Virus record (IMG/VR): IMGVR_UViG_2645727715_000004
DNA: 14,573 bases
Strand: one strand, 5' to 3'
DNA from: a virus
Taxonomy: Duplodnaviria; Heunggongvirae; Uroviricota; Caudoviricetes
Shown here: positions 1 through 14,573 of the stretch, in pieces
How the letters are laid out: every line of letters begins with the position of its first letter
Numbering within the stretch: position 1 is the stretch's first letter
Position numbers and translations under genes: made by a program
The notes under the pieces: generated by a model
Told to the model about the DNA's origin: nothing
The model's database searches: none
Seen by the model: only the letters and a program-made list of their open reading frames with translations

Positions 1-320
1 ATATCCGGAGTAATCCATGCATCGTATAGACACGAAAACCGCGCAGAAGGATAAGTTCGGCGCGGGTAAGAACGGTTTTACCCGTGGTAACCCCCAGATC
101 GGCACGCCTGCCACCGATCTGGATGATGACTACTTTGACATGTTGCAGGAGGAGCTTTGCAGCGTTGTGGAGGCGTCCGGTGCCAGCCTGGAGAAGGGGC
201 GGCACGACCAGCTACTTACCGCGCTTCGCGCGCTGCTGTTAAGCCGCAAGAATCCGTTTGGCGATATCAAATCGGATGGCACGGTGAAAACGGCTCTCGA
301 AAACCTTGGTTTGGGAGAAG
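1..320. repeat. Left arm of a 320-bp perfect inverted repeat; carries the RBS and first 101 codons of the tail-fibre gene; outer end coincides with the window edge
   Basis: Reverse complement of 2194..2513 checked base by base at both ends and over 1..114; ORF-track translations at 17..445(+) and 1697..2497(-) are identical for 101 aa. Identity ends at 320/2194. Confidence 0.95.
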
Positions 321-682: not shown

Positions 683-1123
683 ATGAGTAAATATCTTTAC
701 GATGCTAAAACTAATATGTTTTACCCATTTACTCTGGAAAGTCAGTATAAGGAGTCTGGGTTATGGCCTCATAATGGAGTTGAAGTTGATGAGGATATAT
801 TTATTAAGTACCTGTCCCCACCTCCAGGGAAGGTGAGAGTTGCGGGTGATGATGGCTATCCTGCATGGGATGACGTACCGCCGCTAACTCATGAAGAACA
901 ACTGTCAGAAGCGGAACGAAAAAAACAGACACTCATAAATCGAGTTAATGAATATATTAACAGTAAGCAGTGGCCAGGAAAGGCTGCTATTGGTCGTCTG
1001 AAAGGTGAGGAACTGGCGCAATATAATTCATGGCTTAATTATCTGGACGCACTGGAAATGGTTGATATTTCCAGTGCTCCAGATATTGAATGGCCTACGC
1101 CTCCGGCTGTTCAGGCCAGATGA
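683..1123 (+). CDS. Tail fibre assembly protein (Tfa/U'-like chaperone) for the alternative fibre
   Basis: ATG at 683, two nt after the fibre stop; N-terminus MSKYLYDAKTNMFYPF and C-terminal motif SAPDIEWP are typical of the enterobacterial phage Tfa family. The 611 start of the ORF track overlaps the fibre frame and is rejected. Confidence 0.75.
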   Translation: MSKYLYDAKTNMFYPFTLESQYKESGLWPHNGVEVDEDIFIKYLSPPPGKVRVAGDDGYPAWDDVPPLTHEEQLSEAERKKQTLINRVNEYINSKQWPGKAAIGRLKGEELAQYNSWLNYLDALEMVDISSAPDIEWPTPPAVQAR

Positions 1124-1697
1124 TATCCGGCGCGGTGCTGGTATCTGTTGCCGTCACCGCGTCAATGTAATCCAGCACGGCGTTAAGTCGGGTTGTTTCT
1201 GCCTGCGTCAGCTTCCGCCCGGCCTGCAATTTCAGTTGAATCAGACTGATGGAAGCCATTGCAGCATCAATCAGCGACTGGCGCTGTGCTTCTGCCGCTT
1301 CTACTGCGGCGCTATGCTGTGCCTCGGTATCCGTCACCCATTTCTCACCATCCCATTTATCGTATGGCGTTAACGGGGCGATAGTGGTTGTATTTTCAGG
1401 ATAATCACCCGGAGCTGTGATTTCTTTCGATTCTCCTGTTTCGGTGCTATAGATGATTTCACCGCGATGGTCTGGCACATATTCCCATGAGTTAAAATCT
1501 GCAGAACGGCAGATTGCATAACCAGCTTTATGTGTAACTGGTGCATCTAAACAAGAACATGCCGGGATACCGACGCCAACCGCAAGATATTCAGTTGATG
1601 TGGAAATATATTCCCGCGTTTCACCATCATAATTATAAATGGTAATGACTCCCGCTTTTATGGCAATGAGTTCGTTATTTAATACGGCTTTATTCAT
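1095..1697 (-). CDS. Tail fibre assembly protein (Tfa/U-like chaperone)
   Basis: 200-aa ORF directly downstream of the fibre gene; C-terminal motif DTSTAPDIIWPEQP resembles the conserved Tfa C-terminus of E. coli prophage TfaE/TfaR-type proteins (from memory). Confidence 0.8.
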   Translation of the reverse strand: MNKAVLNNELIAIKAGVITIYNYDGETREYISTSTEYLAVGVGIPACSCLDAPVTHKAGYAICRSADFNSWEYVPDHRGEIIYSTETGESKEITAPGDYPENTTTIAPLTPYDKWDGEKWVTDTEAQHSAAVEAAEAQRQSLIDAAMASISLIQLKLQAGRKLTQAETTRLNAVLDYIDAVTATDTSTAPDIIWPEQPEA

Positions 1698-2497
1698 CAG
1701 GCAGCCCTCACGATATAATTAAAGGCAATGTTACGAGGACGGTTTTCGTTTGCAGTTGGAACAATTCTTGAAGCATCAAGGCCAATCACTTTTGGGTAAA
1801 CAGCGCCATCTGTTCTTTCTGTCACCATACTTCTGATTAAGGAGAAATAACTATTGTTCGTTGAGGGGTTCAAAGGCACTACTGCCCCCTTAAACGAGCC
1901 TACTGATTCCCATATTGAATAATTTTCGGTGTTTACAGTCTTGAACTCACCATAGATATTACGTATGGCATCGCCCTGAGCGGATAATATTGCCCTCCCC
2001 GTATCCATACCACGTCCGTCATCCCAGCCACGAATAAACTCACCACGTAAATCAGGCAATTTATTTGTCGGGTAAGCCTTTGCCAGCTCCGGGTATTCTT
2101 CAGCAGAAAAAGCTGCTCCGTTGCATTTCAGCCAGCCTGTTGGCGGAGTGGCTGAAGGCCACGGAACAGGCACCCCAACAGGTAATGCAGAGCCTTCTCC
2201 CAAACCAAGGTTTTCGAGAGCCGTTTTCACCGTGCCATCCGATTTGATATCGCCAAACGGATTCTTGCGGCTTAACAGCAGCGCGCGAAGCGCGGTAAGT
2301 AGCTGGTCGTGCCGCCCCTTCTCCAGGCTGGCACCGGACGCCTCCACAACGCTGCAAAGCTCCTCCTGCAACATGTCAAAGTAGTCATCATCCAGATCGG
2401 TGGCAGGCGTGCCGATCTGGGGGTTACCACGGGTAAAACCGTTCTTACCCGCGCCGAACTTATCCTTCTGCGCGGTTTTCGTGTCTATACGATGCAT
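1697..2497 (-). CDS. Tail fibre protein (S-like), currently operon-linked orientation
   Basis: 266-aa ORF; constant N-terminus of 101 aa inside the repeat, then a [22 protein letters not shown] collar-like segment and C-terminal tip; start overlaps the gp48-like stop. Confidence 0.85.
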
Positions 2498-2513
2498 GGA
2501 TTACTCCGGATAT
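2194..2513. repeat. Right arm of the 320-bp inverted repeat; the operon-proximal tail-fibre 5' end plus the last 16 nt of the upstream gp48-like gene
   Basis: Exact reverse complement of 1..320; at 2514 it continues into gp48-like coding sequence that is unique in the window. Confidence 0.95.
2195..2220 (-). other. Candidate serine-invertase crossover site, right copy in inverted orientation
   Basis: Reverse complement of 2195..2220 is identical to 294..319. Confidence 0.55.
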
Positions 2514-3085
2514 TTAAAAATTACGTAGGTATGCGACGGGCAGAGTTTGTTAAGCACACATTCGACAACTGTGTCGCCCCAGATACGCAGTGCGGAATCA
2601 CAGGGATCGCCACATGTCATCCAGGTGGTGTTGGTGGCGGCTGGCATGTTGACCTGCCAGTAATACCGCCATTCAGGCGCGTTCACAGCGTCAGTACAGG
2701 CCGATGAGCAGGTGAACGTGCTTTTGTCGTATCGCGTGATGGTGGCATCTGGTCTGCCCAGGGCAGCAAGCTGTGCAAGATAAAAATCCTCGTTGATGCC
2801 GCCCGCCAGGTTAACCTTCGCATCCAGCCGTTGCTGACGCTGGCGAAGGGTCTGTGTCCCTGCGGGAATACATTCATCCGGCAGACCGCACAGACGCTCC
2901 CAGCGGTTTATCAGTTCAGTGGTGGTGCGCGGATCCAGCTCCCGCATCAGGGCATCCGCACGCTGATGAACGCGGGTTAATGACGGTGCCGCACCGGCAA
3001 TCGCCGGATCGCTGGCTGACCACGCCGGACCGGGGGGCAACAGTGCCGACAACAGACGGATGTAATCATCGTTTGTCACGTCCAT
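2501..3085 (-). CDS. Baseplate/tail protein, Mu gp48-like (P2 gpI-like family)
   Basis: 194-aa ORF in the conserved position between the J-like baseplate gene and the fibre; start overlaps the upstream gene's stop. Confidence 0.65.
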
Positions 3086-4134
3086 GAAATCGTCCCCAGT
3101 ACCGCCAGTTCATTTTTTGCAATGGAGATATTGTCTGCCGGTGCAAGCAACTGATGGCTGTATTCCCCGTTCGCACCGGAAATCGCCTCACTGATACGCG
3201 ATACCTTCAGTTCTCCCTGCGGATAACCATCACGCAGCAGGAACGAACGCAACTCCGCGGTGATGGCAGCCCGTATTTCCGGTGTGTCTGGCGTTACGCG
3301 GATATGAAAATCCACCGTATGCGCCACCGGCCTGAACACATACAAATCAGAGCCTGCCACCGGGGCCAGTGGCTCAATGTGTTGTCTTGCCGCCGTTTCC
3401 GTTGATTCTTCCGGAATGGGATTAATCAGGTCACTGCTGGCAATCATCACACCGACAGTTCCCGTTCCCATCCAGTGACGGTATGTCCATGCGCGGGTAA
3501 TGCCGGGCACTTCTTTAGCCCAGACGACATAGTCCCCGTCAGCCCCGCCCTGAGGCGTCCAGTAATACCGCTCAATGACGCGGGCGCGCCACGTTTCCAG
3601 ATCTTCAGTATCGAATCCGCCAGTCAGGGTATCTGCAACACCGGAAGACGGCAGACCATTCACCGGCGTGACCAGGATTAATGCCGTACCGTCGTCAGCG
3701 TTACCGACCGCGCCTGCACTTGAGCAAGTGATCGGCACGCGCAGGACACCACCGGAGCTGGTTGCATCAGCAGTTGCCGTGTATTGAACCAGGTCAGCGC
3801 GCTGAATCACGCTCCCGGCGGTCACCTTCAGGCCATCGCTGACACCTTCCCAGCGCATATACCCGCTGGCAGCCGTGGCCCCCTTGCGCGGACACCGTTT
3901 CATCGCAGCATGTCGCGCCAGCCAGGACGCATCGCACAGGTCAGGCAGCATGTTCATTGCCAGATAATCGATGTACCCGTAAACCGTATGCAGCGCCGCC
4001 GCATACACCTTTGCCCGCACGTCTTCATCCATGCGCCGGAGCGTGTCGCTGACGTCCAGCCTGGCGAATAAATCGTTACGGAGCATACTGATATTTTCTG
4101 CCAGCGTCGGGCGCTGAAATTCACTGTCCGCCAT
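3076..4134 (-). CDS. Baseplate J-like protein (Mu gp47-like)
   Basis: 352-aa ORF; size and position match the baseplate wedge J family in Mu-like tail modules. Confidence 0.75.
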
Positions 4135-4550
4135 GCGTTATCGCACTCCACAGATCATCAAAAGAAATCATTACCGGTCCGTCACGACGCCAGAGGGTGA
4201 TACTGTTACCCAGCTCATTAATCCCGGTGCGGCGGATATCCAGATCAATACGGGACACCACGCCGTCATCAGTCATCCATTGGAGGCATTCGCGGATATA
4301 CCCCCTTACTGTCTGCACCAGCTGATTGGTCAGTTTGCTGCGCTGAAGCAGCCACAGTCGGGAGCCGTAACGGTCATTCTGTCACCGCAGGCCAGGTATC
4401 CCCCCACCATCCCATCGGGACGTCGGCGTTGTCATCAGGCTCCGCCCGCCGCCAGGTAAACAGGGAAATCACCACGGCGCGGGTCAGCGGATCCAGCGGT
4501 GCGCTGGCGCAGGTGCGTTTACCGTTCACCGTCAGCCACAGTTCCATCAT
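4121..4550 (-). CDS. Baseplate protein, Mu gp46-like (gp25/GPW-like), interrupted by a frameshift near 4374..4382
   Basis: ATG at 4550 opens a 58-codon frame ending TGA at about 4376; the +1 frame continues (QNDRYGSRLWLLQRSKLTNQLVQTVRGY...) to the stop at 4121. Combined length about 143 aa matches the family. Confidence 0.55.
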
Positions 4551-5095
4551 GCCTCCATCGCTTTATCAGGTTTGTCGGTGTTACTGCCCTGACCGTTCTC
4601 TCTGTGACGATGCCCGTTATAGGCAAGCCGCATCGCTGACATGGTAGTGCCGCCGGAGTCGCACAGGTCTTTCACCTGTCCGGTCACTTCCAGGTCCATT
4701 TCAAAACGTGCTTCAGGTGCATTGCGAAACGTGATCGTTTTCCCTGCACCGTCCACCACGATCCCTTCCCGGGTCAGTGTCACGGACTGCCCCTGATCGT
4801 CATAGACAGCCACCTCCCCCGTCTGCAGCCCTTTCAGGCGGTAGCGCCGGTCCGACACCGTAACAACCACCGCATGAGAACGGTCGCCATCCGGAAACAA
4901 CACCACCGCTTCCGCACCGCTGTTTGCCCTTGCGGTAAAACCGTAGGGTTCAAGATGCTCAACCCTGGCTTTGGGTTCACCGGCAATCAGGGACACATCC
5001 ACGGTCTGACATTTCGTGGCGGCACTGATGCTTTTCACCACTGCCCGCCCAATCAGGCCGAGGAGTTGTCGCTGCATGGCTTCAATCGTCCTCAT
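4547..5095 (-). CDS. Baseplate assembly protein V-like / spike (Mu gp45-like)
   Basis: 182-aa ORF; start overlaps the P-like stop (ATGA); size and position fit the gpV family. Confidence 0.75.
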   Translation of the reverse strand: MRTIEAMQRQLLGLIGRAVVKSISAATKCQTVDVSLIAGEPKARVEHLEPYGFTARANSGAEAVVLFPDGDRSHAVVVTVSDRRYRLKGLQTGEVAVYDDQGQSVTLTREGIVVDGAGKTITFRNAPEARFEMDLEVTGQVKDLCDSGGTTMSAMRLAYNGHRHRENGQGSNTDKPDKAMEA

Positions 5096-6174
5096 CAGAA
5101 CGGGTCCTCCTGTACTCTGGCTTTTTTCTTTTTCCGCGCACCGGGATCTTCGGGTTCAGGCAGATAAGCATCAGGCGGGCCGACACGGATTTCCGTCAGG
5201 GTGCCGTTCTGGTCCTGAGTAAACGTGACTTCCGAGACAAGCAGTTCGGTATTGTCGAAACCACAGACCGGATCGAAGACAATCACCCGCTGGTTGGGCT
5301 GCCACAGCGTACCGTTACCCTGTCGCCAGCCCTGCACCACATAGGTGGTTTCATCCGTCCGCGCCGCCCGTTGTCGGGCTTCAAAGTCAGCACGGGCAAT
5401 ACAGCCTGCCCCCGTGGCCTGCCCTGTCTGCCTGATATACATCGGACGGTAACGGGCAATAAATGCGTCCTCTGTGCGGGCCCGCAGCGCGGTGGTGGTG
5501 GCCTCACCGAAATCATCGTCGTTTCCGGCACGCTGCCCCGCCACCTGGTAAACAGAAAACCGCTCCCGGATACTCTTCTCCGTATCGCAGGAAAGGATGT
5601 TTTCCCCAAGTACCAGCGCGGTATGTGCCCGCGTTGAGCCAATACCGCCAATCACCAGCCTGCCGTGCGGGTCGTCGTAAGCCAGCGCCTGCTGCTGACC
5701 GAGTATTTTGTTGATCACCTCAATCACCGTTTCACCGTGATCAGGCTGGACATCAGGAATAACACCAGACGGCGCACCGCTGTTCACCACCTCAATGCCG
5801 AAAGGCGCAGCAAGCGCCTGCGCAATCTGAACCAGCGATCGTCCGTTAAACTGTGTCGGTTCGGCTGCACAGTCAATCAGGTCAGCGGTCAGACTACGCC
5901 CAGCAATACCGGTGCTGACCGAACGGGCATCGTAACGAACGGGAGTCGCCTCCACCCAGCCGGTGATCACCAGCTCATCACCAATCAGCACTTCCACTTT
6001 TGAACCGTTTTTAATACGCGGCTGAAGCGTGGTGATACCCTCATCTCCCGGCCACTGGCGGGTGATCTCCACACTGAAATCCCGCGTCAGCCGTTCAATA
6101 CCGGCACCGATGCGCACCGATGTCCAGCCATTCCACTCCCGGCCATTTACCCGTAGCGTGACGTTATCATTCAT
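5095..6174 (-). CDS. Tail protein, Mu P-like (P2 gpD-like baseplate hub)
   Basis: 359-aa ORF, N-terminus MNDNVTLRVNGREWNGWTSVRIG typical of Mu P / gpD-like tail proteins; follows the N-like gene as in Mu. Confidence 0.75.
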   Translation of the reverse strand: MNDNVTLRVNGREWNGWTSVRIGAGIERLTRDFSVEITRQWPGDEGITTLQPRIKNGSKVEVLIGDELVITGWVEATPVRYDARSVSTGIAGRSLTADLIDCAAEPTQFNGRSLVQIAQALAAPFGIEVVNSGAPSGVIPDVQPDHGETVIEVINKILGQQQALAYDDPHGRLVIGGIGSTRAHTALVLGENILSCDTEKSIRERFSVYQVAGQRAGNDDDFGEATTTALRARTEDAFIARYRPMYIRQTGQATGAGCIARADFEARQRAARTDETTYVVQGWRQGNGTLWQPNQRVIVFDPVCGFDNTELLVSEVTFTQDQNGTLTEIRVGPPDAYLPEPEDPGARKKKKARVQEDPF

Positions 6175-7499
6175 AGCACTGGCACCTTCAGAGGGATCAC
6201 CGGCACAAAGCCGGGATGCGTAATGGCATTACGCCGGATAATGTCCGCGTCACGCGCCGCGTTATCAAACCAGGTCGCCGCCAGCACCAGCGCGGGTAAG
6301 ACCTCATCCGGCGTGCGCTGAATGATCCGTGCAGACTGTTCAAGGCGCGTGTTGATATCCGCATTCAGATCTGCTTTCACCCGGCGCAGCGCCAGAAACA
6401 GCGCATCACTGGTTGTACGGGACAACTCCTTATCAATTGCCGTATTCAGTGTGTCGCGAATGTCAGTCAGTTCTTCCCACGTCGGCAGGTCAACCGTGTT
6501 TTTCACCGCCGGTGCATTGTTCAGTGCCGGATGCGTGACGGAAGGCCAGCCGGTGCTCTGCGCGGGTGTTGTTGACTGCCCCACTGCGGCATTCTGCATC
6601 ACCGCGGAAATTGTTGGCGCAGGCAATCGGGTGATGGCATACGCCGCTTCGCTGATTGCGGTCGTACGAAGGGTGCTGGCAACCACGTTACGCTGCTGCG
6701 TTGCCGTGGCGGTGGTTTTACTGTCCGTTTTCCAGACGCCGCGCGGTTGCAGATCGCTGCCGAGGCTGACACCAGAAAGCGTTTTGATCATGGTGACCAG
6801 GTCGCTGGCGTTACCATAAAGGCGCTTCCCGGTACGCCACATTTTCTGCACCTGCTCAACGAAATTTTTTCCTGACGATGGCGGCGGCAGAAGTACCGAG
6901 ATATCCCCCTGCAACAGCCTGGCGGCATCCGATACGGCAGAATCCACCACTTTCATCGCATCAGAAACATACCCCAGCATTGTGCTGGCATTACCGATAA
7001 CGTCGTTCTGTACGAAACCCGCCACGCCATCGATACTGAAACCACTGAAGCTGTCACTGATGCAGTCATCCAGCGCAGAACAGGATGACATCAGCGTCTG
7101 CGCCGTCGCCGCGCCTGATGTGGGGTAAGAGAGTTCTCCCGCTTCGACAAACTTCAGGTCAAAGCGGACAATACGCCCTTCACTCTTCGATGTGCTGACC
7201 CGAACTTCCCCGTCAACACAGACTTTCAGCTCACCGTATGTCGGGTGGACAAGCATGCCGGGACCGGGTTTATTCAGCGCTTCAATCAGGCGATCGCGCT
7301 GGTCAAAGCAGTCATCTCCCACCACATAAGCCGTGATGGACGGGCGGAAAGTGATTTTCCCCAGGTCTTCGGTATAGGGTTTGTCGCGGTTCGGGTATTC
7401 GTGTGTTTCCACACGACGACCGGTTCCCGCACTTTCTTCTTCAACCTTAAACGGCACACCGCGAAATGACGCGTCCTGAAGTCTGTCTTTCCACGTCAT
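6171..7499 (-). CDS. DNA circularisation protein N-like (Mu gpN family)
   Basis: N-terminus MTWKDRLQDASFRGVPFKVEEES is characteristic of Mu N-like proteins. Start placed at the ATG at 7499 rather than the 7541 start of the ORF track, which would run into the terminator hairpin. Confidence 0.8.
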   Translation of the reverse strand: MTWKDRLQDASFRGVPFKVEEESAGTGRRVETHEYPNRDKPYTEDLGKITFRPSITAYVVGDDCFDQRDRLIEALNKPGPGMLVHPTYGELKVCVDGEVRVSTSKSEGRIVRFDLKFVEAGELSYPTSGAATAQTLMSSCSALDDCISDSFSGFSIDGVAGFVQNDVIGNASTMLGYVSDAMKVVDSAVSDAARLLQGDISVLLPPPSSGKNFVEQVQKMWRTGKRLYGNASDLVTMIKTLSGVSLGSDLQPRGVWKTDSKTTATATQQRNVVASTLRTTAISEAAYAITRLPAPTISAVMQNAAVGQSTTPAQSTGWPSVTHPALNNAPAVKNTVDLPTWEELTDIRDTLNTAIDKELSRTTSDALFLALRRVKADLNADINTRLEQSARIIQRTPDEVLPALVLAATWFDNAARDADIIRRNAITHPGFVPVIPLKVPVL

Positions 7500-7514
7500 A
7501 TAAACTCCGTACAT

Positions 7515-7536
7515 AAAAAATCCCACCGGAGTGGGA
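7515..7536 (-). terminator. Possible weak intrinsic terminator / attenuator between tape measure and N-like gene
   Basis: On the minus strand: 6-bp stem TCCCAC/GTGGGA with 4-nt loop, followed directly by TTTTTT (plus-strand A-run 7515..7520), in a 60-bp intergenic gap. Confidence 0.4.
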
Positions 7537-7559
7537 CTCATTAACAGATTAATTTTTCA

Positions 7560-9393
7560 TTACCTGCCAAAGCGCGTATAGCCAACATCATGGCTGACAT
7601 CAAAACCGCTGGATCGCGTTTCCATAACCCGCATACCCGGAGGCGAATTCACAAAAGAGACCTTGATCTCACCATCAACTTTTGGCGCAGAAGCTTTGTT
7701 AATCATGAAGGGATTCGGGCCTGTGGCATCGGAGGCGTTGTTTGATTGAGCCGGATCTACCGCCGGATAAGGTGTGTATCCCCGCGCCGGTATTCCCGTC
7801 CCATAAGCATCATAAGCACCCGCGCCCCACTGCGCAGAGTTAATGGCATCGACCGTGTCACCGGAACTGTCGGTAAACCACTCAATAATTGGCTTCAGCT
7901 TGTCCCACATATCCTGAAACCACTTAACAACCGGTCCCCAGTTATTGATCACTATCCCCAGCGGCGACCAGGCAAAAACCTTCTTAAGAAGTTCCCAGCC
8001 AGCCTCAAAATAAGGACCAATGGTTTCCCAGAGTTTCTTAAAATAAGGTCCGACAACATCCCAGTTAGTGATAATTAATCCCGCAGCCAGGCTATCGCCG
8101 TCGCAATCATGCCAATCGGCGTCATCGACATAATCCTGCTGACAATACTGATGGCACCGCCAACGCCCATCAATCCCAGTTTCAGAATCGCAAGACCGGC
8201 AGCAAGCCCGACGACGCCGCGAATAACCCGGGGATTTTCATCCGCAAACTTCGTGAATTTTTCCCCTAACTCCCCCAGCCATTGCGTGATATTTTTGGCG
8301 TCACCAGAAAATGCGCCGCCAATAGCCGCAAGGCCGTTAGTTGCGGTCCCCGTCATTGCCTCCCACAGGTTGGACAGCGTTCCAAGCTGGGCCTGAACAC
8401 GTTTATTCAGGCTGGCCTGTTTATTCATCTTCTGCTGGATCTGATCGTAGCCATCCTTTCCTTTATCGATTAGTGCATTGACCACCTGAAGGGTTTCGGC
8501 ATCATCACCAAATATTGCCTTAAGTACACCTGTTCGCTTAACGTCTGTCAGTTTTCGCAGCTTTGCCAGTTGCTTAAACATGTTATCAAGACCGCCAAAA
8601 CTCCCTTTGCCGTCAGTAAAATCGAGCTGCACTCCGAGTTTCTGGCGGGCCATGACTTTATTGACGTCCCTGATTTTCTTAACGCTTAATCCGGACTGGA
8701 TAACTTTTCGCAGGGCATTACCTGCCGACTCCCCGTTCATCCCCATCTGATCCATCATGACGCTGATAGGGGCAAGGCTCTGTGCAGCCTGAAGTCCGTC
8801 CTTATTCACCATCTTCAGAACAGAACTGGTTTTAGTGAAGAAGGACAACATGTTGGTATCGTCAACGCCCAGATAAAACGCCTTCTGGATAGTGTCGAAC
8901 AGCCCCATCATGTCTTCTGACGCCGTTCCGGTAGCATCCTGCATCTTTGCAGCAAACTCAGCAGCCGCTTCCGGTGTTTTTTTCAGTTGTACCGCAAGAT
9001 AAGCTGTCGCTTTACCCACACCACCAAGAATGTTTTCTGCCGGGATCCCTGACGCACCAGCATCTGCATCATGTTCTGGAAATCAGCCGTTGTACCGGGT
9101 AGCTGGTTACCCAGGCCAATAGCCAGTTTATTGATGTCCTGAAAGCTCTTTCCAACCTCGCCGTTCGCATCCATCATAGCGACTTTCAGCCCGGTGGCGG
9201 CGTTTTCCTGATCAGCATAAGATTTCAGGGAAAGCGTCAGACCCGCTGCCAGTCCGCCACCAAGCGCCAGCCCACCCTGTGACGCTTCTTCCGCCTGGCG
9301 TTTAAATCCCCGGATTTTCTTTTGCATTTTCGACAGCGCGGGAGAAAGCCTGTCGACACCGGTGATCAACGCCTTAAGCTCAAATTCAGCCAT
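7560..9393 (-). CDS. Tail tape measure protein, interrupted by two apparent 1-nt deletions (about 9042..9054 and 8071..8080)
   Basis: Three consecutive minus-strand ORFs (8983..9393, 8075..9019, 7560..7952) form one roughly 612-codon reading frame if one base is restored at each junction (VRQG|IPAENILGG and WLRD|LIITNW). Shows the hydrophobic segment and W-rich C-terminal repeats typical of tape measure proteins. Confidence 0.7.
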
Positions 9394-9804
9394 GTGTGCG
9401 TTTCTCCTGCTCTATCCTGTTTGCCTGACTGACCAGCAAGGGAATTTCACTGATCGGCATATTCAGCAATTCGAAGGGATTAATGCGCCAGTAGCTGGCG
9501 CAGTCAAAGAAGCGATCAGTGAGGTATTCAGCCGTCAGGCCTGGAGGAAAAAACCAGCCACAAGCCACGCCGCTGCATTCAGGTCTGCCGGAGACATCTG
9601 GTCGACAGAGCTTTGCGGCACTTTCGCCAGCCGCACAATGTATTTCGACACCACATGCGCCAGAAGTCTGACGGACTCATCCTGATTCATCTGGTAGGGA
9701 TACCCCAGCTCGCGGACATCCTTCCCGGTGGGCTCATCAAACTCCAGTACGGAGAGTGTCTCACCATGAGCGATAATCGGTTTCTTTAACTCAAGCTCTT
9801 TCAT
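9386..9804 (-). CDS. Tail assembly chaperone frameshift fusion product (gpGT / gpE+E' analogue) made by programmed -1 ribosomal frameshift
   Basis: The -1 frame ORF 9386..9568 overlaps the 3' end of the chaperone ORF and ends 8 nt inside the tape measure start; slippery heptamer T_TTT_TTC lies in the overlap. Confidence 0.65.
9535..9804 (-). CDS. Tail assembly chaperone (lambda gpG / P2 gpE analogue)
   Basis: 89-aa ORF between tube and tape measure genes; carries the slippery site at its 3' end. Confidence 0.75.
   Translation of the reverse strand: MKELELKKPIIAHGETLSVLEFDEPTGKDVRELGYPYQMNQDESVRLLAHVVSKYIVRLAKVPQSSVDQMSPADLNAAAWLVAGFFLQA
9547..9553 (-). other. Slippery heptamer T TTT TTC for the programmed -1 frameshift
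   Basis: Minus-strand codons GGT TTT TTC in the zero frame; plus-strand gaaaaaa at 9547..9553. Confidence 0.6.
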
Positions 9805-10160
9805 TACTGGTAATCCCCTTCTTCACCGTGGAACTCAAGATCAACCGTGCCTTCTTCGGCATTATGGTTCGCTTCTCCGTGCAGCCAGGCGGACGACAAT
9901 ACATAGACCTGACCGTTCGCCAGCTCGGCAGTGATAGTCATCTCATCAGACGAGGTGATTTTGTTCACCGGAAAATTCTTCGGCACCTTGAAAGTCCCTT
10001 TGACATAAGGCGCACGGTGAGTTTCCTTGCGGTCCACTGAACCGTCCAGGCCGATGATGTCATCATTGACCGTCCTGTTCATGGGCACCTCAATGCCGCC
10101 GGTCAGCGATAGCTGTTGACCGTCAATTTTGAAATAACAGGTTCCCCCGATACGGGCCAT
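9804..10160 (-). CDS. Tail tube protein (Mu gpM-like)
   Basis: 118-aa ORF immediately downstream of the sheath gene, start overlapping the sheath stop. Confidence 0.75.
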   Translation of the reverse strand: MARIGGTCYFKIDGQQLSLTGGIEVPMNRTVNDDIIGLDGSVDRKETHRAPYVKGTFKVPKNFPVNKITSSDEMTITAELANGQVYVLSSAWLHGEANHNAEEGTVDLEFHGEEGDYQ

Positions 10161-11656
10161 TATGCAGACTCCTCTGAATACTGAAGACGGAACTGGTTAA
10201 CCACGGCAAAGACACGCAACTGGTTAACATAGTCAGGCGGGAACAGCGTGTTCAGGCGGTTCGGATCGCTGGCATCACGCTCCACAACCAGGTACTGCTT
10301 AAACAGTTCGTAGTTTTCCACGATCCCCGCACGCTCAAGCTGACGGTAGGTTGCCAGCAGTTCCCCTTTGATCACCGCCGGTGTGACAATCGCCTGACCG
10401 GGACCAAAGCGGGTACCGTCGCTGGCAAGCTTGTGACGCCCGTACTTACTGGTAATGACGGATTTCAGTTTGCGCAGTACATACGCGCTGGTATGCAGCG
10501 TCTCGCTGTCGAGGTAGCTGTTATCCGCAACACCGTAAGCGTTTTTCCTGTACGTGGTGACATCACGCTGAATGCGCAGCACCCCGCTTTCGACATACGC
10601 CGTTGCCACGCCATGAGACAGCAGGGTCTGTTGTTCGGTCATCGTGAACCGTTTCCCCTTCGGCGCAGGCAGCATACCCACCAGTTCACCGGTCTGCGTG
10701 GGACGTGCCGGATCGTTGCGAATAAACACCGCTGCGCGGGCGGTACGGCTTGCCGCCAGCTCGTCGGCAGGCGTCTGGGTCTCTTTTTCGTATCCCGCCA
10801 GGGTAATGTGCTGCTGGTTAAACTGGTCACCTGCGGTCACCAGTTCTGACAGCGTGCCGGTCTTTGCCGTATACACATGACCATACAGCTGACGCGCATA
10901 GCTCCAGCGACCGCTGGTATCGTTCATCTCGGTCACCAGCGTGTTAACGGAGGCCGTGTCGTTGAACGGCAGGCCGATATAATCAAACGGCTCATCCGCC
11001 ATTGCAGCCACCGCGCCGGTGAGAACCGGAGCGCCCGTTCCGGCGATCCCCGTCGCCACGGCAATCTGTACGCCCGCTGGCAGCACTTCGCCCCCACCAA
11101 AGCCGTAGTAATTGAGGCTGACAGGAATTTCATTCCCGCAAAGCCCCTTATGACGCGCGGTCAGTGTGACCACGCCTGCCGAAGATGAGGCAGTAAACGG
11201 CAGGGTCGGAACGGCATTGATGGCATCTTTGATACTGCTGGCAATCGTCGCGACGTTATCGCCGTTGGTCACCGGTGCCTGCACGCGGGTACGTCCCACA
11301 TAAACATTCACCGTGCCGGTTTCGGTTGCCGCGCCGGTCACCGTCAGCGTAACTGTTGCCGCCGCGCCCGTGGATTCAGGAACGGCAATCACATACAGTT
11401 CACCAAACGGGTCGGTCTGGCGATAAGCCTCGACCATACGCGCCAGCTGACTTCCCGCACCACAAATCTGGCGTGCATAGTCTGCCGATGGCATCAGCAC
11501 CAGACTGTTGGCAACAATCTCTGCACCGTTATTGGCATGACCAATCAGCAGCGATGCTCCGCTGTCCTGTGCAGTATTCGCCGCCGAGTTATCCATTTCC
11601 GCATAAAAAATCGGAACCAGCGTATTCGACGGAATGGTGTTAAAGCTTATCGTCAT
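10160..11656 (-). CDS. Contractile tail sheath protein (Mu gpL-like)
   Basis: 498-aa ORF, N-terminus MTISFNTIPSNTLVPIFYAEMDNS typical of Mu-like sheath proteins; followed by tube and chaperone genes. Confidence 0.85.
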   Translation of the reverse strand: MTISFNTIPSNTLVPIFYAEMDNSAANTAQDSGASLLIGHANNGAEIVANSLVLMPSADYARQICGAGSQLARMVEAYRQTDPFGELYVIAVPESTGAAATVTLTVTGAATETGTVNVYVGRTRVQAPVTNGDNVATIASSIKDAINAVPTLPFTASSSAGVVTLTARHKGLCGNEIPVSLNYYGFGGGEVLPAGVQIAVATGIAGTGAPVLTGAVAAMADEPFDYIGLPFNDTASVNTLVTEMNDTSGRWSYARQLYGHVYTAKTGTLSELVTAGDQFNQQHITLAGYEKETQTPADELAASRTARAAVFIRNDPARPTQTGELVGMLPAPKGKRFTMTEQQTLLSHGVATAYVESGVLRIQRDVTTYRKNAYGVADNSYLDSETLHTSAYVLRKLKSVITSKYGRHKLASDGTRFGPGQAIVTPAVIKGELLATYRQLERAGIVENYELFKQYLVVERDASDPNRLNTLFPPDYVNQLRVFAVVNQFRLQYSEESA

Positions 11657-11810
11657 CGGTATTCACCTTTTCATTCACGCGCCGGATATCACCCGCTGCT
11701 TCACGGCGCAGCCAGTAGTTGTTCTCATCAACATTTCGCCCCTCGGCGGGCAAAAGGTCGCCGCGGGCAGGGTCAGGCACTGACCGCCCTTTAACAGGTT
11801 TCACAAACAT
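11640..11810 (-). CDS. Small ORF (56 aa) upstream of and overlapping the sheath start; not in the supplied ORF track
   Basis: Hand translation: ATG at 11810 nine nt after the preceding gene's stop, MFVKPVKGRSVPDPARGDLLPAEGRNVDENNYWLRREAAGDIRRVNEKVNTDDDKL, stop TAA 11640..11642. Fills the otherwise empty 160-bp gap. Confidence 0.45.
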   Translation of the reverse strand: MFVKPVKGRSVPDPARGDLLPAEGRNVDENNYWLRREAAGDIRRVNEKVNTDDDKL

Positions 11811-11818
11811 GAAGATTC

Positions 11819-12379
11819 TCAGGAAGGAAGGGTTATTTCGGTGTGATGTTCGATATCGCCGTCAGGCCCGTTACCGGGATCGAGATAATCAACATCAATC
11901 GCCAGCGTTCGCAGTTCATCCAGACTGTTCAGGTCATCCTGCTGGCGGGTATCGTCTTCGGTCAGCTCGCTGATGACCGAAAAATCGAACTGATAAATCA
12001 GCTCATGACGATTCAGATCCAGCAGCGTGCCGCCGTCATAGGTAATCGGGTTACCGCACGCTTCCGGGTTCCAGCCCAGCAGGGCCTTAAAGAGCATCTG
12101 CCGGACATCGTCCACCACATCATACGAAGCAAACTGACCGCGCTCATCACGCCCGTTACTCAGTATGACAACCACGGAGAAGCCCTCTTTCAGCTCCTGC
12201 CAGTAGTCGGTCTGGCTTTTGTTTTCTCCCGGAGAATCATCACCCGGTACAACATATGCCGCCGGGAGTTTCAGCTTTCCGACCTCCGGCAGATTTTTGA
12301 ACTGGGCCGCGCCTGCAACCCGGTTTTCAAAATACGGACAGCGGGCACGCAGTGCAGCAATAACAGGCGTCAGTTTCAT
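11819..12379 (-). CDS. Putative neck / tail-completion (tail terminator-like) protein
   Basis: 186-aa ORF between the gp10-like neck gene and the sheath; function assigned by position only. Confidence 0.45.
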   Translation of the reverse strand: MKLTPVIAALRARCPYFENRVAGAAQFKNLPEVGKLKLPAAYVVPGDDSPGENKSQTDYWQELKEGFSVVVILSNGRDERGQFASYDVVDDVRQMLFKALLGWNPEACGNPITYDGGTLLDLNRHELIYQFDFSVISELTEDDTRQQDDLNSLDELRTLAIDVDYLDPGNGPDGDIEHHTEITLPS

Positions 12380-12881
12380 CTGTGTCGTCGCTCCGGCTTC
12401 AGTGATTTACGCAATTCCCGCGCCAGAAAATAGCGTGTCCAGCTGCGGTTCTTTTCAAGCGTTTCCACCATGAAGTTATTACGTGGAGCCAGTCGCCAGC
12501 CGCTGCCACCGGATGCACCACGATGATGGCTGCGACGACGCTTTGCCCCTCGCCTCACGCCATAGAACAAAAAAGCCGGATAAAAATCACCGGTGATACG
12601 GCGGTTTCCCTCTCCATTACGCTGGTTAGGGGCTATACGTGCCATAAAACCAGGGCGATGTTTACTGGCTCTGGGTACCATGTAACCAATCGAACGAGCC
12701 AGGCGTCCGGTCTGATAACCGGGGTTTTCACCCGGTGCCGACCGCGCACGGCGCATCACCAGCGACGGGCATCACGCATATGACGCTGACCAATCGTGAC
12801 AAACGCCCGCCGGACACGGGCGCGGTTAAAGCGCATCTCCGCGGGCTGCTGAAAATCAACGTGCAAAAAGGAAGTCGTCAT
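12376..12881 (-). CDS. HK97 gp10-family head-tail joining protein, interrupted by an apparent 1-nt deletion near 12757..12766
   Basis: ATG at 12881 gives MTTSFLHVDFQQPAEMRFNRARVRRAFVTIGQRHMRDARRW then stop; the -1 frame continues as VMRRARSAPGENPGYQTGRLARS... to 12376. Restoring one base makes one roughly 168-aa protein. Confidence 0.55.
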
Positions 12882-13266
12882 TGTTGCCTCCGTGACTCTG
12901 CCCACATTCGCCCAGCTCCGTACACTCCAGCAGCAGAAAGCGCCGCGCCCCGTTCAGATCGCGCTGACGTTTCACCCGGTACACACTGTCACCGCAGACC
13001 ACCTCATAATCAGCGGTGATCCCCCGGCGGTAACGAATGGTGATGTAATGGGTGATGGCGTCCCCGGTCTGCGCGGTTTCCTGCCAGGTGGTGGCACTGG
13101 TCTGGATAACCTTCGCCCATGTCCGGAACGTAACCGGGTATTGAGGCTCCACGCCAAAGTTATCCGCGGGCATATCCACCCGCTGGCGGATCAGGACGCG
13201 TTTATTCAGTTCACCGGGGTCCGGCAGAATGTAGGTTGCGCTGGTCTGCGCCTGACGAATTTTCAT
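12856..13266 (-). CDS. Head closure / head-tail adaptor protein
   Basis: 136-aa ORF following the connector gene with overlapping start/stop; size and position fit. Confidence 0.6.
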   Translation of the reverse strand: MKIRQAQTSATYILPDPGELNKRVLIRQRVDMPADNFGVEPQYPVTFRTWAKVIQTSATTWQETAQTGDAITHYITIRYRRGITADYEVVCGDSVYRVKRQRDLNGARRFLLLECTELGECGQSHGGNNDDFLFAR

Positions 13267-13586
13267 TGCGGAAAGTACCTGTACGGGCCGACAAGCCAGC
13301 CAAAACTCTGCGGCATGTCGAGTTTCTCCACTTCCGTAACCGACGAGCGGTTTTCGTAAAAATGGCTGATAAGCATCAGCATCCCCAGACGAATATCATC
13401 CGGCAGGTGCAGCCCGTCCGGATCGCTGTCCGGAATGGTTTCATCCGGTGCATAGAGCTTCCGGTTCAGATACGTTTCCGTCCGCTTTTGTGCCGCACAG
13501 GCCAGCAGTTGCAGATGGCGGTCATCAGCATCGAAATCCTCATCCAGCCGGAGTTGGGCTTTAATCTCTTCCATTGTCAGAAGCAT
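13263..13586 (-). CDS. Head-tail connector protein (HK97 gp6-like)
   Basis: 107-aa acidic ORF, MLLTMEEIKAQLRLDEDFDADDRHLQLL..., typical of gp6-like connector proteins; conserved position after the capsid gene. Confidence 0.65.
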   Translation of the reverse strand: MLLTMEEIKAQLRLDEDFDADDRHLQLLACAAQKRTETYLNRKLYAPDETIPDSDPDGLHLPDDIRLGMLMLISHFYENRSSVTEVEKLDMPQSFGWLVGPYRYFPQ

Positions 13587-13588
13587 AC

Positions 13589-13789
13589 TCAGCCCTCTTT
13601 ACTGGTCGTGGCTTTTTTCTCTTTTGCCGCTTTACTGCTTTTTGCACTGATTCCGCGCTCTGCTAACCCGGCCTGAAGTGCAATCTCCTGCACCCGGGCA
13701 GGAAGCGCCCCGTCGTCATACTCACCGGCCCGAATGACCTCAACACGCATACCGTCCGGTGACCATTTCAGATCTTGTTTCAGGATCAT
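13589..13789 (-). CDS. Hypothetical small phage protein (66 aa, lysine-rich C-terminus)
   Basis: ORF with SD-like GGTGAAG upstream of ATG at 13789; sits between capsid and connector genes. Confidence 0.45.
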   Translation of the reverse strand: MILKQDLKWSPDGMRVEVIRAGEYDDGALPARVQEIALQAGLAERGISAKSSKAAKEKKATTSKEG

Positions 13790-13811
13790 GATTCTTCACC
13801 CGTCAGAACAG

Positions 13812-13831
13812 GGGGCGCGGTTCCGCGCCCC
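13812..13831 (-). terminator. GC-rich hairpin just after the major capsid gene; possible attenuator or RNA-stability element
   Basis: 9-bp GC stem GGGGCGCGG/CCGCGCCCC (13812..13820 / 13823..13831) in the 49-bp gap after the capsid stop; no clear U-tract on the minus strand. Confidence 0.35.
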
Positions 13832-13838
13832 TGAGTGA

Positions 13839-14573
13839 TTACGCCGCTGCAATCTTCAGCAGTTTGATGGCCTGCGAATCGACCAGCATCCCGCCGGTGC
13901 GCTTGGTGGTATAAAAACCGACAAACGGTTTATTGGTGTACGGGTCACGCAGAATGCGGGTGCCGATACGGTCAACGATGGTGTAACCCCGTTTGAAGTT
14001 ACCAAATGCAATGGCTTTCGCATCAGCGGCGATATCCGGCATCTGTTCGTTTTCAGCGATACCGTAACCCGCCAGAGAGGACGGCTGCCCCAGTTCCAGC
14101 CCCGGACGCCACAGATAGTTACCCTCGGTGTCTTTCAGCAGACGGATGGCAAACAGGCTGTTGTTGTTCATCATGAACTTCGCGCCAGTGCGGTGTGCCT
14201 TACGCAGCGTGTAAATCAGTTTGATAATGGCGTCTGCGGTCACCGCGGTCGCTTCGCCGGATACAATATGCTGAAGTTTGCCGAACGCCCGGACCTTATC
14301 GGTTTCATCAGTAGATTCATACGCCAGGAACCCTTTTGGCTTCTTGGTACCATCGCCGGTGGTAAAGGCAATTTCTTCCTGTTCGGCAAATTCGGTCGCC
14401 AGCTCGCTGTTGATCCAGGCCTCCACGTTGAAGAAGGCATCGTCCAGCATTTTCTGGGTAGCCTGCGGGTTGCCGTAGATTTCCCCCATGAGAGGTTCAA
14501 TCAGCTCCAGTCTGGAGGTGGCAGTCTGGGATCGCGTATCCGTTACCCCCACCCATCCGGAAGCCGTACCGCC
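13839..14573 (-). CDS. Major capsid protein, HK97 family (5'-truncated; continues beyond the right edge)
   Basis: C-terminal region shows the GNFKRGYTIVDR and RILRDPYT type motifs of HK97-fold capsid proteins; the frame stays open upstream of the listed M to base 14573. Confidence 0.85.
   Translation of the reverse strand, partial: GGTASGWVGVTDTRSQTATSRLELIEPLMGEIYGNPQATQKMLDDAFFNVEAWINSELATEFAEQEEIAFTTGDGTKKPKGFLAYESTDETDKVRAFGKLQHIVSGEATAVTADAIIKLIYTLRKAHRTGAKFMMNNNSLFAIRLLKDTEGNYLWRPGLELGQPSSLAGYGIAENEQMPDIAADAKAIAFGNFKRGYTIVDRIGTRILRDPYTNKPFVGFYTTKRTGGMLVDSQAIKLLKIAAA

Follow-up and report, generated by a model that had tools for sequence, protein, structure and literature searches.

A late operon of the SfV/e14 type in a contig of Escherichia coli D92/09 joins HK97-family head and neck genes to a Mu-like contractile tail

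The window analysed here, 14,573 bp in length, is the entire draft contig LEKZ01000190.1 of assembly GCA_001038025.1 from the Shiga-toxin-producing isolate E. coli D92/09, which was sequenced with the Ion Torrent PGM at 16.5x (PMC4588619). From 1095 to 14573 it is occupied by a single minus-strand operon of densely packed genes with overlapping start and stop codons, in which head and neck genes of the HK97 family are followed by genes for a contractile tail of the type found in phage Mu. The contig ends within the capsid gene on one side and within a fibre cassette on the other; gtr, int, the lambdoid early region and other genes known from the Sf phages are off the contig. We are close to certain that the window represents the late (virion) operon of a temperate myophage prophage of the SfV/SfI/SfII/e14 type, with an HK97-family head and neck on a Mu-like tail. 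All genes described below are on the minus strand unless stated otherwise.

At its head end the window encodes the C-terminal 244 residues of the major capsid protein (13839-14573), the N-terminus of which lies beyond the contig end. The protein matches PF05065 (E = 2e-67) and TIGR01554 major_cap_HK97 (E = 2e-82) and shares 26% identity with HK97 gp5 (BLASTP, E = 2e-7), while no other Pfam family was matched at E<=0.01 and BLASTP gave no match to Mu T or any other Mu head protein. The head is therefore of the HK97 family and not of the Mu (T/J-like) type, which would have spoken against the mosaic of the two phages proposed in an earlier reading of the sequence alone (the sequence-only reading). 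'HK97-type' is meant here as a family-level label, since the fold of HK97 is found in the Mu capsid protein too (PMC11915804). The genes for a portal and a prohead protease of the HK97 type fall beyond the contig end; the collinear modules of Shigella phage SfI, Salmonella phage ST64B and E. coli EC6622 contain both. The capsid gene is followed by a 66-residue ORF (13589-13789) which belongs to phrog_1020, a family of unknown function (E = 2e-44), and has no match in Pfam or NCBIfam. It goes together with the capsid of the SfI/ST64B type and is absent in SfV, where a predicted terminator sits in its place. The C-terminus of this small protein is rich in lysine and serine.

Two neck genes come next. 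The head-tail adaptor Ad1 (13263-13586) is HK97 gp6-like (PF05135, E = 6e-10; phrog_40, E = 7e-38; TIGR01560, E = 3e-19), and the head closure or stopper protein Hc1 (12856-13266) is HK97 gp7-like and SPP1 gp16-like (PF05521, E = 4e-22; phrog_25, E = 4e-50; TIGR01563). Both score above the Pfam cut-offs, and scans of HK97 gp6 and gp7 place these two in the Pfam and PHROG families of their window counterparts. HK97 and the window thus agree in the families of capsid, adaptor and head closure and in their order, with the Neck1 gene described below in the position of gp10. Pairwise identity is nevertheless low, as apart from the capsid no protein shows a significant BLASTP match, and the window has the extra 66-residue ORF after the capsid gene. 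HK97 then continues with the gp11 terminator (115 residues, PF11367) and a siphovirus tail, whereas the window continues with a long-form terminator and a contractile tail.

The third neck gene (12376-12881) is a Neck1 or tail-completion gene of the SfV orf8 type, putatively of a distant HK97 gp10-like kind, which matches phrog_879 ('tail completion or Neck1') with E = 5e-70. In the window it is broken by a single-nucleotide deletion after 12762, and the fragment aligns to profile positions 42-168 only; intact homologues have 168 residues and repair of the deletion recovers a frame of exactly this length. Is this protein a relative of gp10, as the sequence-only reading had it? Neither the fragment nor the intact 168-residue homologue matches a gp10 profile in Pfam, even at a lenient E<=10, or any model in NCBIfam, and comparisons of shallow family alignments in hhalign were negative against both HK97 gp10 and Mu gp35. 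A phmmer search of the PDB returned nothing relevant for either intact Neck1 or the terminator. When the family profile was run against 1.8 billion representative proteins, 174 relatives were found, and 14 of the 63 distant full-length ones individually match PF04883 HK97-gp10_like, with a best E of 4e-6. The deeper alignment could be aligned to HK97 gp10 in hhalign over a 14-column FYPAFLxYG motif only (E = 0.0065). The 'gp10-like' label would thus hold transitively, through these distant relatives, and not by any profile match of the protein itself.

The tail terminator (11819-12379) is a long-form protein of 186 residues in PF23840 (E = 4e-26), with a sub-threshold match to PF09646 Gp37. 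Mu gp37 belongs to PF08873 and HK97 gp11 to PF11367; the window protein has no PF08873 match, and hhalign with shallow family alignments was negative against both Mu gp37 and HK97 gp11. When terminator and Neck1 were scanned against Pfam at E<=10 alongside Mu gp36, gp37 and G and HK97 gp10 and gp11, no match crossed from one family to another. In length the terminator is close to Mu gp37 (182 residues) and unlike the much shorter HK97 gp11. Its AlphaFold2 model (pLDDT 71, about 80 in the core) has as its best PDB match the Mu terminator 9khy (E = 1e-6, TM 0.51-0.54), followed by 2gjv, the R2 pyocin collar, T5 p142, T4 gp15 and lambda gpU, which suggests the fold common to terminators, leaning slightly towards Mu. 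Two C-terminal strands, modelled with low confidence, are found at the place of the Mu gp37 beta-hairpin, which in Mu follows the sheath on contraction (PMC11915804).

The terminator start codon overlaps the Neck1 stop codon in an ATGA at 12376-12379, leaving no intergenic gap. Because the terminator is counted with the tail, the family-level joint between the HK97-like and Mu-like parts is placed here, at ~12376-12379. A promoter and terminator scan over 9300-14573 gave nothing beyond shuffled expectation, which leaves the joint without a regulatory break. Separately, an antisense ORF of 196 residues across this area (11843-12433, plus strand), which matches phrog_22027 with E = 9e-47, was considered and rejected as a shadow ORF: in ST64B the frame contains three stops and is 43% identical, versus 72% for the terminator on the sense strand. 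The phrog_22027 family itself probably consists of miscalled shadow ORFs. Four other plus-strand ORFs in the region have no PHROG match.

From this point on the operon follows Mu. The DUF2635 protein (11640-11810; PF10948, E = 5e-17; phrog_208) is a homologue of Mu gp38 with 42% identity, and the tail sheath (10160-11656; PF04984, PF17482, PF17481) is a homologue of Mu L, 36% identical over 500 residues to Mu gp39 (E = 6e-90). The tail tube (9804-10160) falls in the same families as Mu gp40, that is the Mu M family (PF10618, E = 3e-33; phrog_185), with no pairwise BLASTP match to Mu M. The tail assembly chaperone (9535-9804; PF10109, E = 2e-15; phrog_166) has near the end of its gene a canonical -1 slippery heptamer, T_TTT_TTC, at 9553-9547 in the right phase, and the -1 extension to 9386 would give a fused product of 139 residues. 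The extension (9386-9568) matches the conserved phrog_32181 (E = 4e-40) and stops 8 nt inside the tape measure gene. The tape measure (7560-9393) is split by two single-nucleotide deletions into three ORFs, the fragments of which match phrog_26612, phrog_28 and phrog_17727, and is a single gene of 1836 nt in SfI, SfV and EC6622.

The baseplate genes at 2501-7541 comprise N (6171-7541; 42% identity over 89 residues to Mu gp43), P (5095-6174; 35% to Mu gp44), gp45 (4547-5095; 33% to Mu gp45), gp46 (4121-4550, broken by a C inserted at 4383 and assigned by the Pfam family named for Mu gp46), gp47 (3076-4134; 31% to Mu gp47) and gp48 (2501-3085; 30% to Mu gp48). Apart from gp46, their BLASTP matches to Mu have E values from 3e-14 to 2e-56, and the Pfam families of the group are PF07157, PF06890, PF07409, PF04865 and PF10076, with gp45, gp46 and gp48 in families named after Mu proteins. 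Against all Mu late proteins, BLASTP was significant for gp38, L, N, P, gp45, gp47 and gp48, at 30-42% identity and E from 8e-13 to 6e-90. The order terminator, gp38, L, M, chaperone, tape measure, N, P, gp45-48, fibre and fibre assembly is collinear in Mu and the window, and Mu has an invertible fibre segment, of which the window contains a probable counterpart. The difference is at the other end of the virion, where Mu has the T capsid family, a lone gp36 adaptor and no stopper (PMC11915804), and the window has an HK97-family capsid, a gp6-type adaptor, a gp7-type stopper and Neck1. The life style of Mu also differs from that of the phage type to which the window belongs.

Both the profile annotation of the ORFs and the gene-order comparison with Mu, SfV-like phages and HK97 support the mosaic that the sequence-only reading had proposed, with capsid, adaptor and head closure in the families of HK97 gp5, gp6 and gp7 and a tail collinear with Mu gp38-gp48. 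Every gene it had named is present and on the minus strand, and its comparison with SfV-like phages proved exact. Its coordinates need correction. The span given for the whole module, 9386-14573, contains the head and neck genes down to the chaperone and leaves out N, P and gp45-48, which had been cited as part of it and lie at 2501-7541. The junction, which it had put at 11640-12880, does fall there at the level of families but is far narrower, and that interval wrongly took in DUF2635, which is clearly of the Mu gp38 type by identity and by both family assignments.

The closest relatives leave little doubt about what kind of element this is. DNA identity over 2194-14573 is 97.7-97.8% to Shigella phages SfI and SfII (97.8% for SfI) and 96.8-97.8% when SfIV is included with them; SfV is 97.0% identical over 2194-13379, and Escherichia phage vB_EcoM-689R6 is 97.7% identical over 2010-14573. 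The gene order from capsid to gp48 and the layout of an HK97-family head on a Mu-like tail are identical to the window in SfI, SfII, SfIV and SfV. SfV departs from the window in a divergent HK97-family capsid and adaptor and, as mentioned, in the missing 66-residue ORF. The fibre and assembly genes to the left of 2194 differ between the Sf phages and the window, in which they resemble those of other E. coli, Salmonella and Klebsiella prophages. In E. coli EC6622 a collinear prophage module adjoins pinE, ymfQ and ymfR, which are e14-type gene names, and among 5,426 complete E. coli genomes 781, about one in seven, hold at least 80% of the window. The nearest relatives carry integrase and excisionase genes (int and xis in SfV). 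ST64B has the same gene order from terminase through fibre assembly. In amino acids its capsid is 97.5% identical to that of the window and its adaptor 92%, with DUF2635, sheath and tube at 83-85%; Hc1 reaches only 65%, N 45% and the chaperone 43%, and the tape measure can scarcely be aligned. In DNA, from the head-closure gene on, ST64B is 57-72% identical (90-nt windows, profiled over 11600-13220) and ~65% identical in the baseplate region.

The window differs from the Sf phages and from the EC6622 prophage by five single-nucleotide indels, defined against both SfI and EC6622: after 416, at 4383, after ~8089-8091, after ~9046-9049 and after 12762. They break the C-part of an alternative fibre gene (416), gp46 (the insertion at 4383), the tape measure (~8090 and ~9047) and Neck1 (12762). 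Four of the five shorten runs of G or C (GGG to GG, CCCC to CCC, CC to C and CCC to CC). The Ion Torrent PGM is known for errors in homopolymer length. Probably, then, the five indels are homopolymer errors of this platform and not signs of pseudogenisation, and the broken genes in this contig should not be read as pseudogenes without re-sequencing.

Could the prophage instead be decaying and non-functional, with five real frameshifts and hence neither a tail of correct length nor a baseplate wedge? Such decay would account directly for the interruption of Neck1, tape measure, gp46 and alternative fibre relative to both references, and a frameshifted tape-measure fragment is on record, solely from LEKZ01000190.1. 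However, the assembly is a 16.5x Ion Torrent one (PMC4588619) in which the indels are mostly contractions of G/C runs, and indels aside the module retains 97-98% identity to functional phages, with no premature stop made by substitution noticed in the ORF comparison. We therefore consider real decay unlikely, although it is the strongest of the competing explanations. An assembly chimera, in which contigs of an HK97-like and a Mu-like prophage were joined artificially, might be suspected from the low-coverage draft and the assembly-related inverted repeat at the left end, but the same order across the joint is found in hundreds of complete E. coli genomes and in the independently sequenced SfI, SfII, SfIV, SfV and ST64B, and Neck1 and terminator overlap in the ATGA with no gap between them; collinear finished genomes rule a chimera out for all practical purposes, and a chance pattern as well. 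A Mu-like transposable prophage with mislabelled head genes would fit the fourteen consecutive tail-module positions, from terminator to fibre-assembly gene, that stand in Mu order, but has next to no chance of being right and is ruled out by the head and neck profile families: the capsid belongs to TIGR01554/PF05065 and does not match Mu T, the adaptor belongs to PF05135 and not to PF07030, the family of Mu gp36, to which it has no match, a stopper absent in Mu is present, and the nearest relatives encode integrase and excisionase.

Several observations do weigh against assigning the window to a functional virion operon with an HK97-family head and neck and a Mu-like tail, or at least blur this assignment. 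The five indels, if real, would inactivate Neck1, tape measure, gp46 and the alternative fibre. The terminator, which sits right at the joint, is not assignable by sequence to the Mu or the HK97 side, given the negative hhalign comparisons and differing Pfam families, and its fold match to Mu is only marginally ahead of those to other terminators. The AlphaFold2 model of Neck1 has a mean pLDDT of 49.6, too poor for a fold search or for placing the protein in the neck. Within the tail, Mu gp41 belongs to PF23746/phrog_508, scores just under the PF10109 cut-off and has no pairwise similarity to the window chaperone, and the tape measure has no BLASTP similarity to that of Mu; these two window proteins are equivalent to Mu gp41 and gp42 in position and function only. 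The assignment to the SfV/e14 type nevertheless stands at the confidence given at the outset.

A second joint becomes visible when the relatives are compared with the contig in 90-nt windows. Up to ~13220 the contig is at least 98% identical to SfV; identity then drops to 78-64% and is lost past 13670, while identity to ST64B behaves in the opposite way, at 57-72% up to ~13220 and ~90% beyond. These two independent comparisons place a recombination breakpoint at 13175-13265 (~13220), at the boundary of the Ad1 and Hc1 genes, and so outside the 11640-12880 interval of the sequence-only reading. The proteins follow the same pattern: the capsid is 27% identical to that of SfV and 97.5% to that of ST64B, the adaptor 62% and 92%, and Hc1, on the other side of the breakpoint, 98% and 65%. 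On the SfV side the breakpoint agrees with the published divergence of the SfV head proteins (PMC3851460). Judged from these sequence comparisons, Hc1 and Neck1 appear to be inherited with the tail block, which would be ordinary mosaicism at a gene boundary. A side observation concerns the adaptor region of SfI, where the record NC_027339 has no annotated adaptor gene at 14075-14427 (gp08 is skipped). Two BLAST segments imply ~30 nt fewer there than in the window, and the SfI record may contain a deletion or a sequencing error in the Ad1 gene.

How might such a virion be assembled? With family memberships, gene order, breakpoint position and near-identity to known phage genomes as what the sequences show, we take the order of assembly, the contacts between rings and the roles of Neck1 and DUF2635 from those of homologues. 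The HK97-family head would be built by an HK97-type pathway, and after DNA packaging the Ad1 ring would bind the portal and the Hc1 stopper would close the channel, accompanied by the divergent Neck1. The tail would be built apart, on a simple baseplate of the Mu type with P as hub, gp45 as spike, gp46, gp47 and gp48 as wedges and N as tube initiator, components which have been resolved for Mu (PMC11915804). The tape measure, with the chaperone and its -1 frameshift product holding it, would set the tail length. Tube and sheath would then polymerise and be capped by a hexameric terminator of Mu-like size and predicted fold, and head and tail would finally join at the interface between stopper and terminator. 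In Mu the connector consists of portal, gp36 and gp37, without a stopper, and gp36 docks directly on the terminator (PMC11915804). Since the Mu connector lacks a stopper, the SfV-type neck is a true hybrid and not a Mu neck. Mu gp38, the homologue of DUF2635, was not resolved in the same structure (PMC11915804).

The left end of the contig has a history of its own. A host-range cassette at 1-2513 contains, on the minus strand, the fibre gene (1697-2497) and the fibre assembly gene (1095-1697) and, convergent with them on the plus strand, an alternative assembly gene (611-1123) and the C-part of an alternative fibre gene (about 320-681), all between the arms of a perfect 320-nt inverted repeat (1-320 and 2194-2513) that reaches the left end of the contig. 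The repeat copies, in inverted orientation, the stretch from the last 13 nt of gp48 across a short spacer into the fibre gene, of which it takes in the first ~300 nt, and it ends at crossover cores of the Gin/Pin/Cin type, AAACCTTGGTTT at 301-312 and its complement at 2202-2213. In EC6622 pinE fills the place of window positions 1-300, adjoining position 301; in the window the invertase lies off the contig. Most likely the contig end derives from reads of cells with the fibre segment in the opposite orientation, which if true means that Pin-type inversion was active in the sequenced culture, although the repeat may also be a real duplication. Over 99 residues the fibre protein is 88% identical to Stf, the side tail fibre of HK97. 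G+C is 46-49% in the fibre and assembly region and 56-59% in the genes of the baseplate. The matches of the fibre and assembly region are to prophages of Salmonella and Klebsiella and not to the Sf phages; it is a host-range cassette exchanged on its own.

The mosaic of SfV was reportedly published in 2002-2003, and Allison et al. 2002 (J Bacteriol 184:1974) is among the sources cited for it. The SfV GenBank record assigns orf10, orf11 and orf15-20 similarity to Mu gp38, L, N, P and gp45-48 and gives none for orf8 and orf9, a picture that matches the window. HK97-family head genes with a Mu-like contractile tail operon have been described for SfV-like phages (PMC4542187, PMC3851460), and the head proteins of SfI, SfII, SfIV and SfV all belong to the HK97 family, those of SfV being divergent members in comparison with SfI, SfII and SfIV (PMC3851460). 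The combination seen in the window is thus already known and is ordinary for E. coli and Shigella prophages. For annotation and classification it means that the contig should be labelled as a virion module of the SfV/e14 type, and not as a Mu-like element or a lambdoid siphovirus element.

An HK97 head on a Mu tail is textbook modular phage evolution. What is added here is that the joint between families is placed at the Neck1/terminator boundary, that the current recombination joint lies one to two genes upstream of it, and that the neck is unlike the stopper-less one of Mu. We would give even chances to a reading in which the unit exchanged among living relatives is the head up to the adaptor on one side and the stopper, Neck1, terminator and tail on the other, rather than an HK97-type head and neck against a Mu-type tail. 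Real frameshifts, in a prophage undergoing erosion or domestication, would be a second and less likely reading. If exchange does proceed in the units just named, adaptors only 62% identical, attached to capsids only 27% identical, would dock on the same stopper, and the HK97-type stopper and Neck1 would now be part of the co-inherited block of a Mu-type tail.

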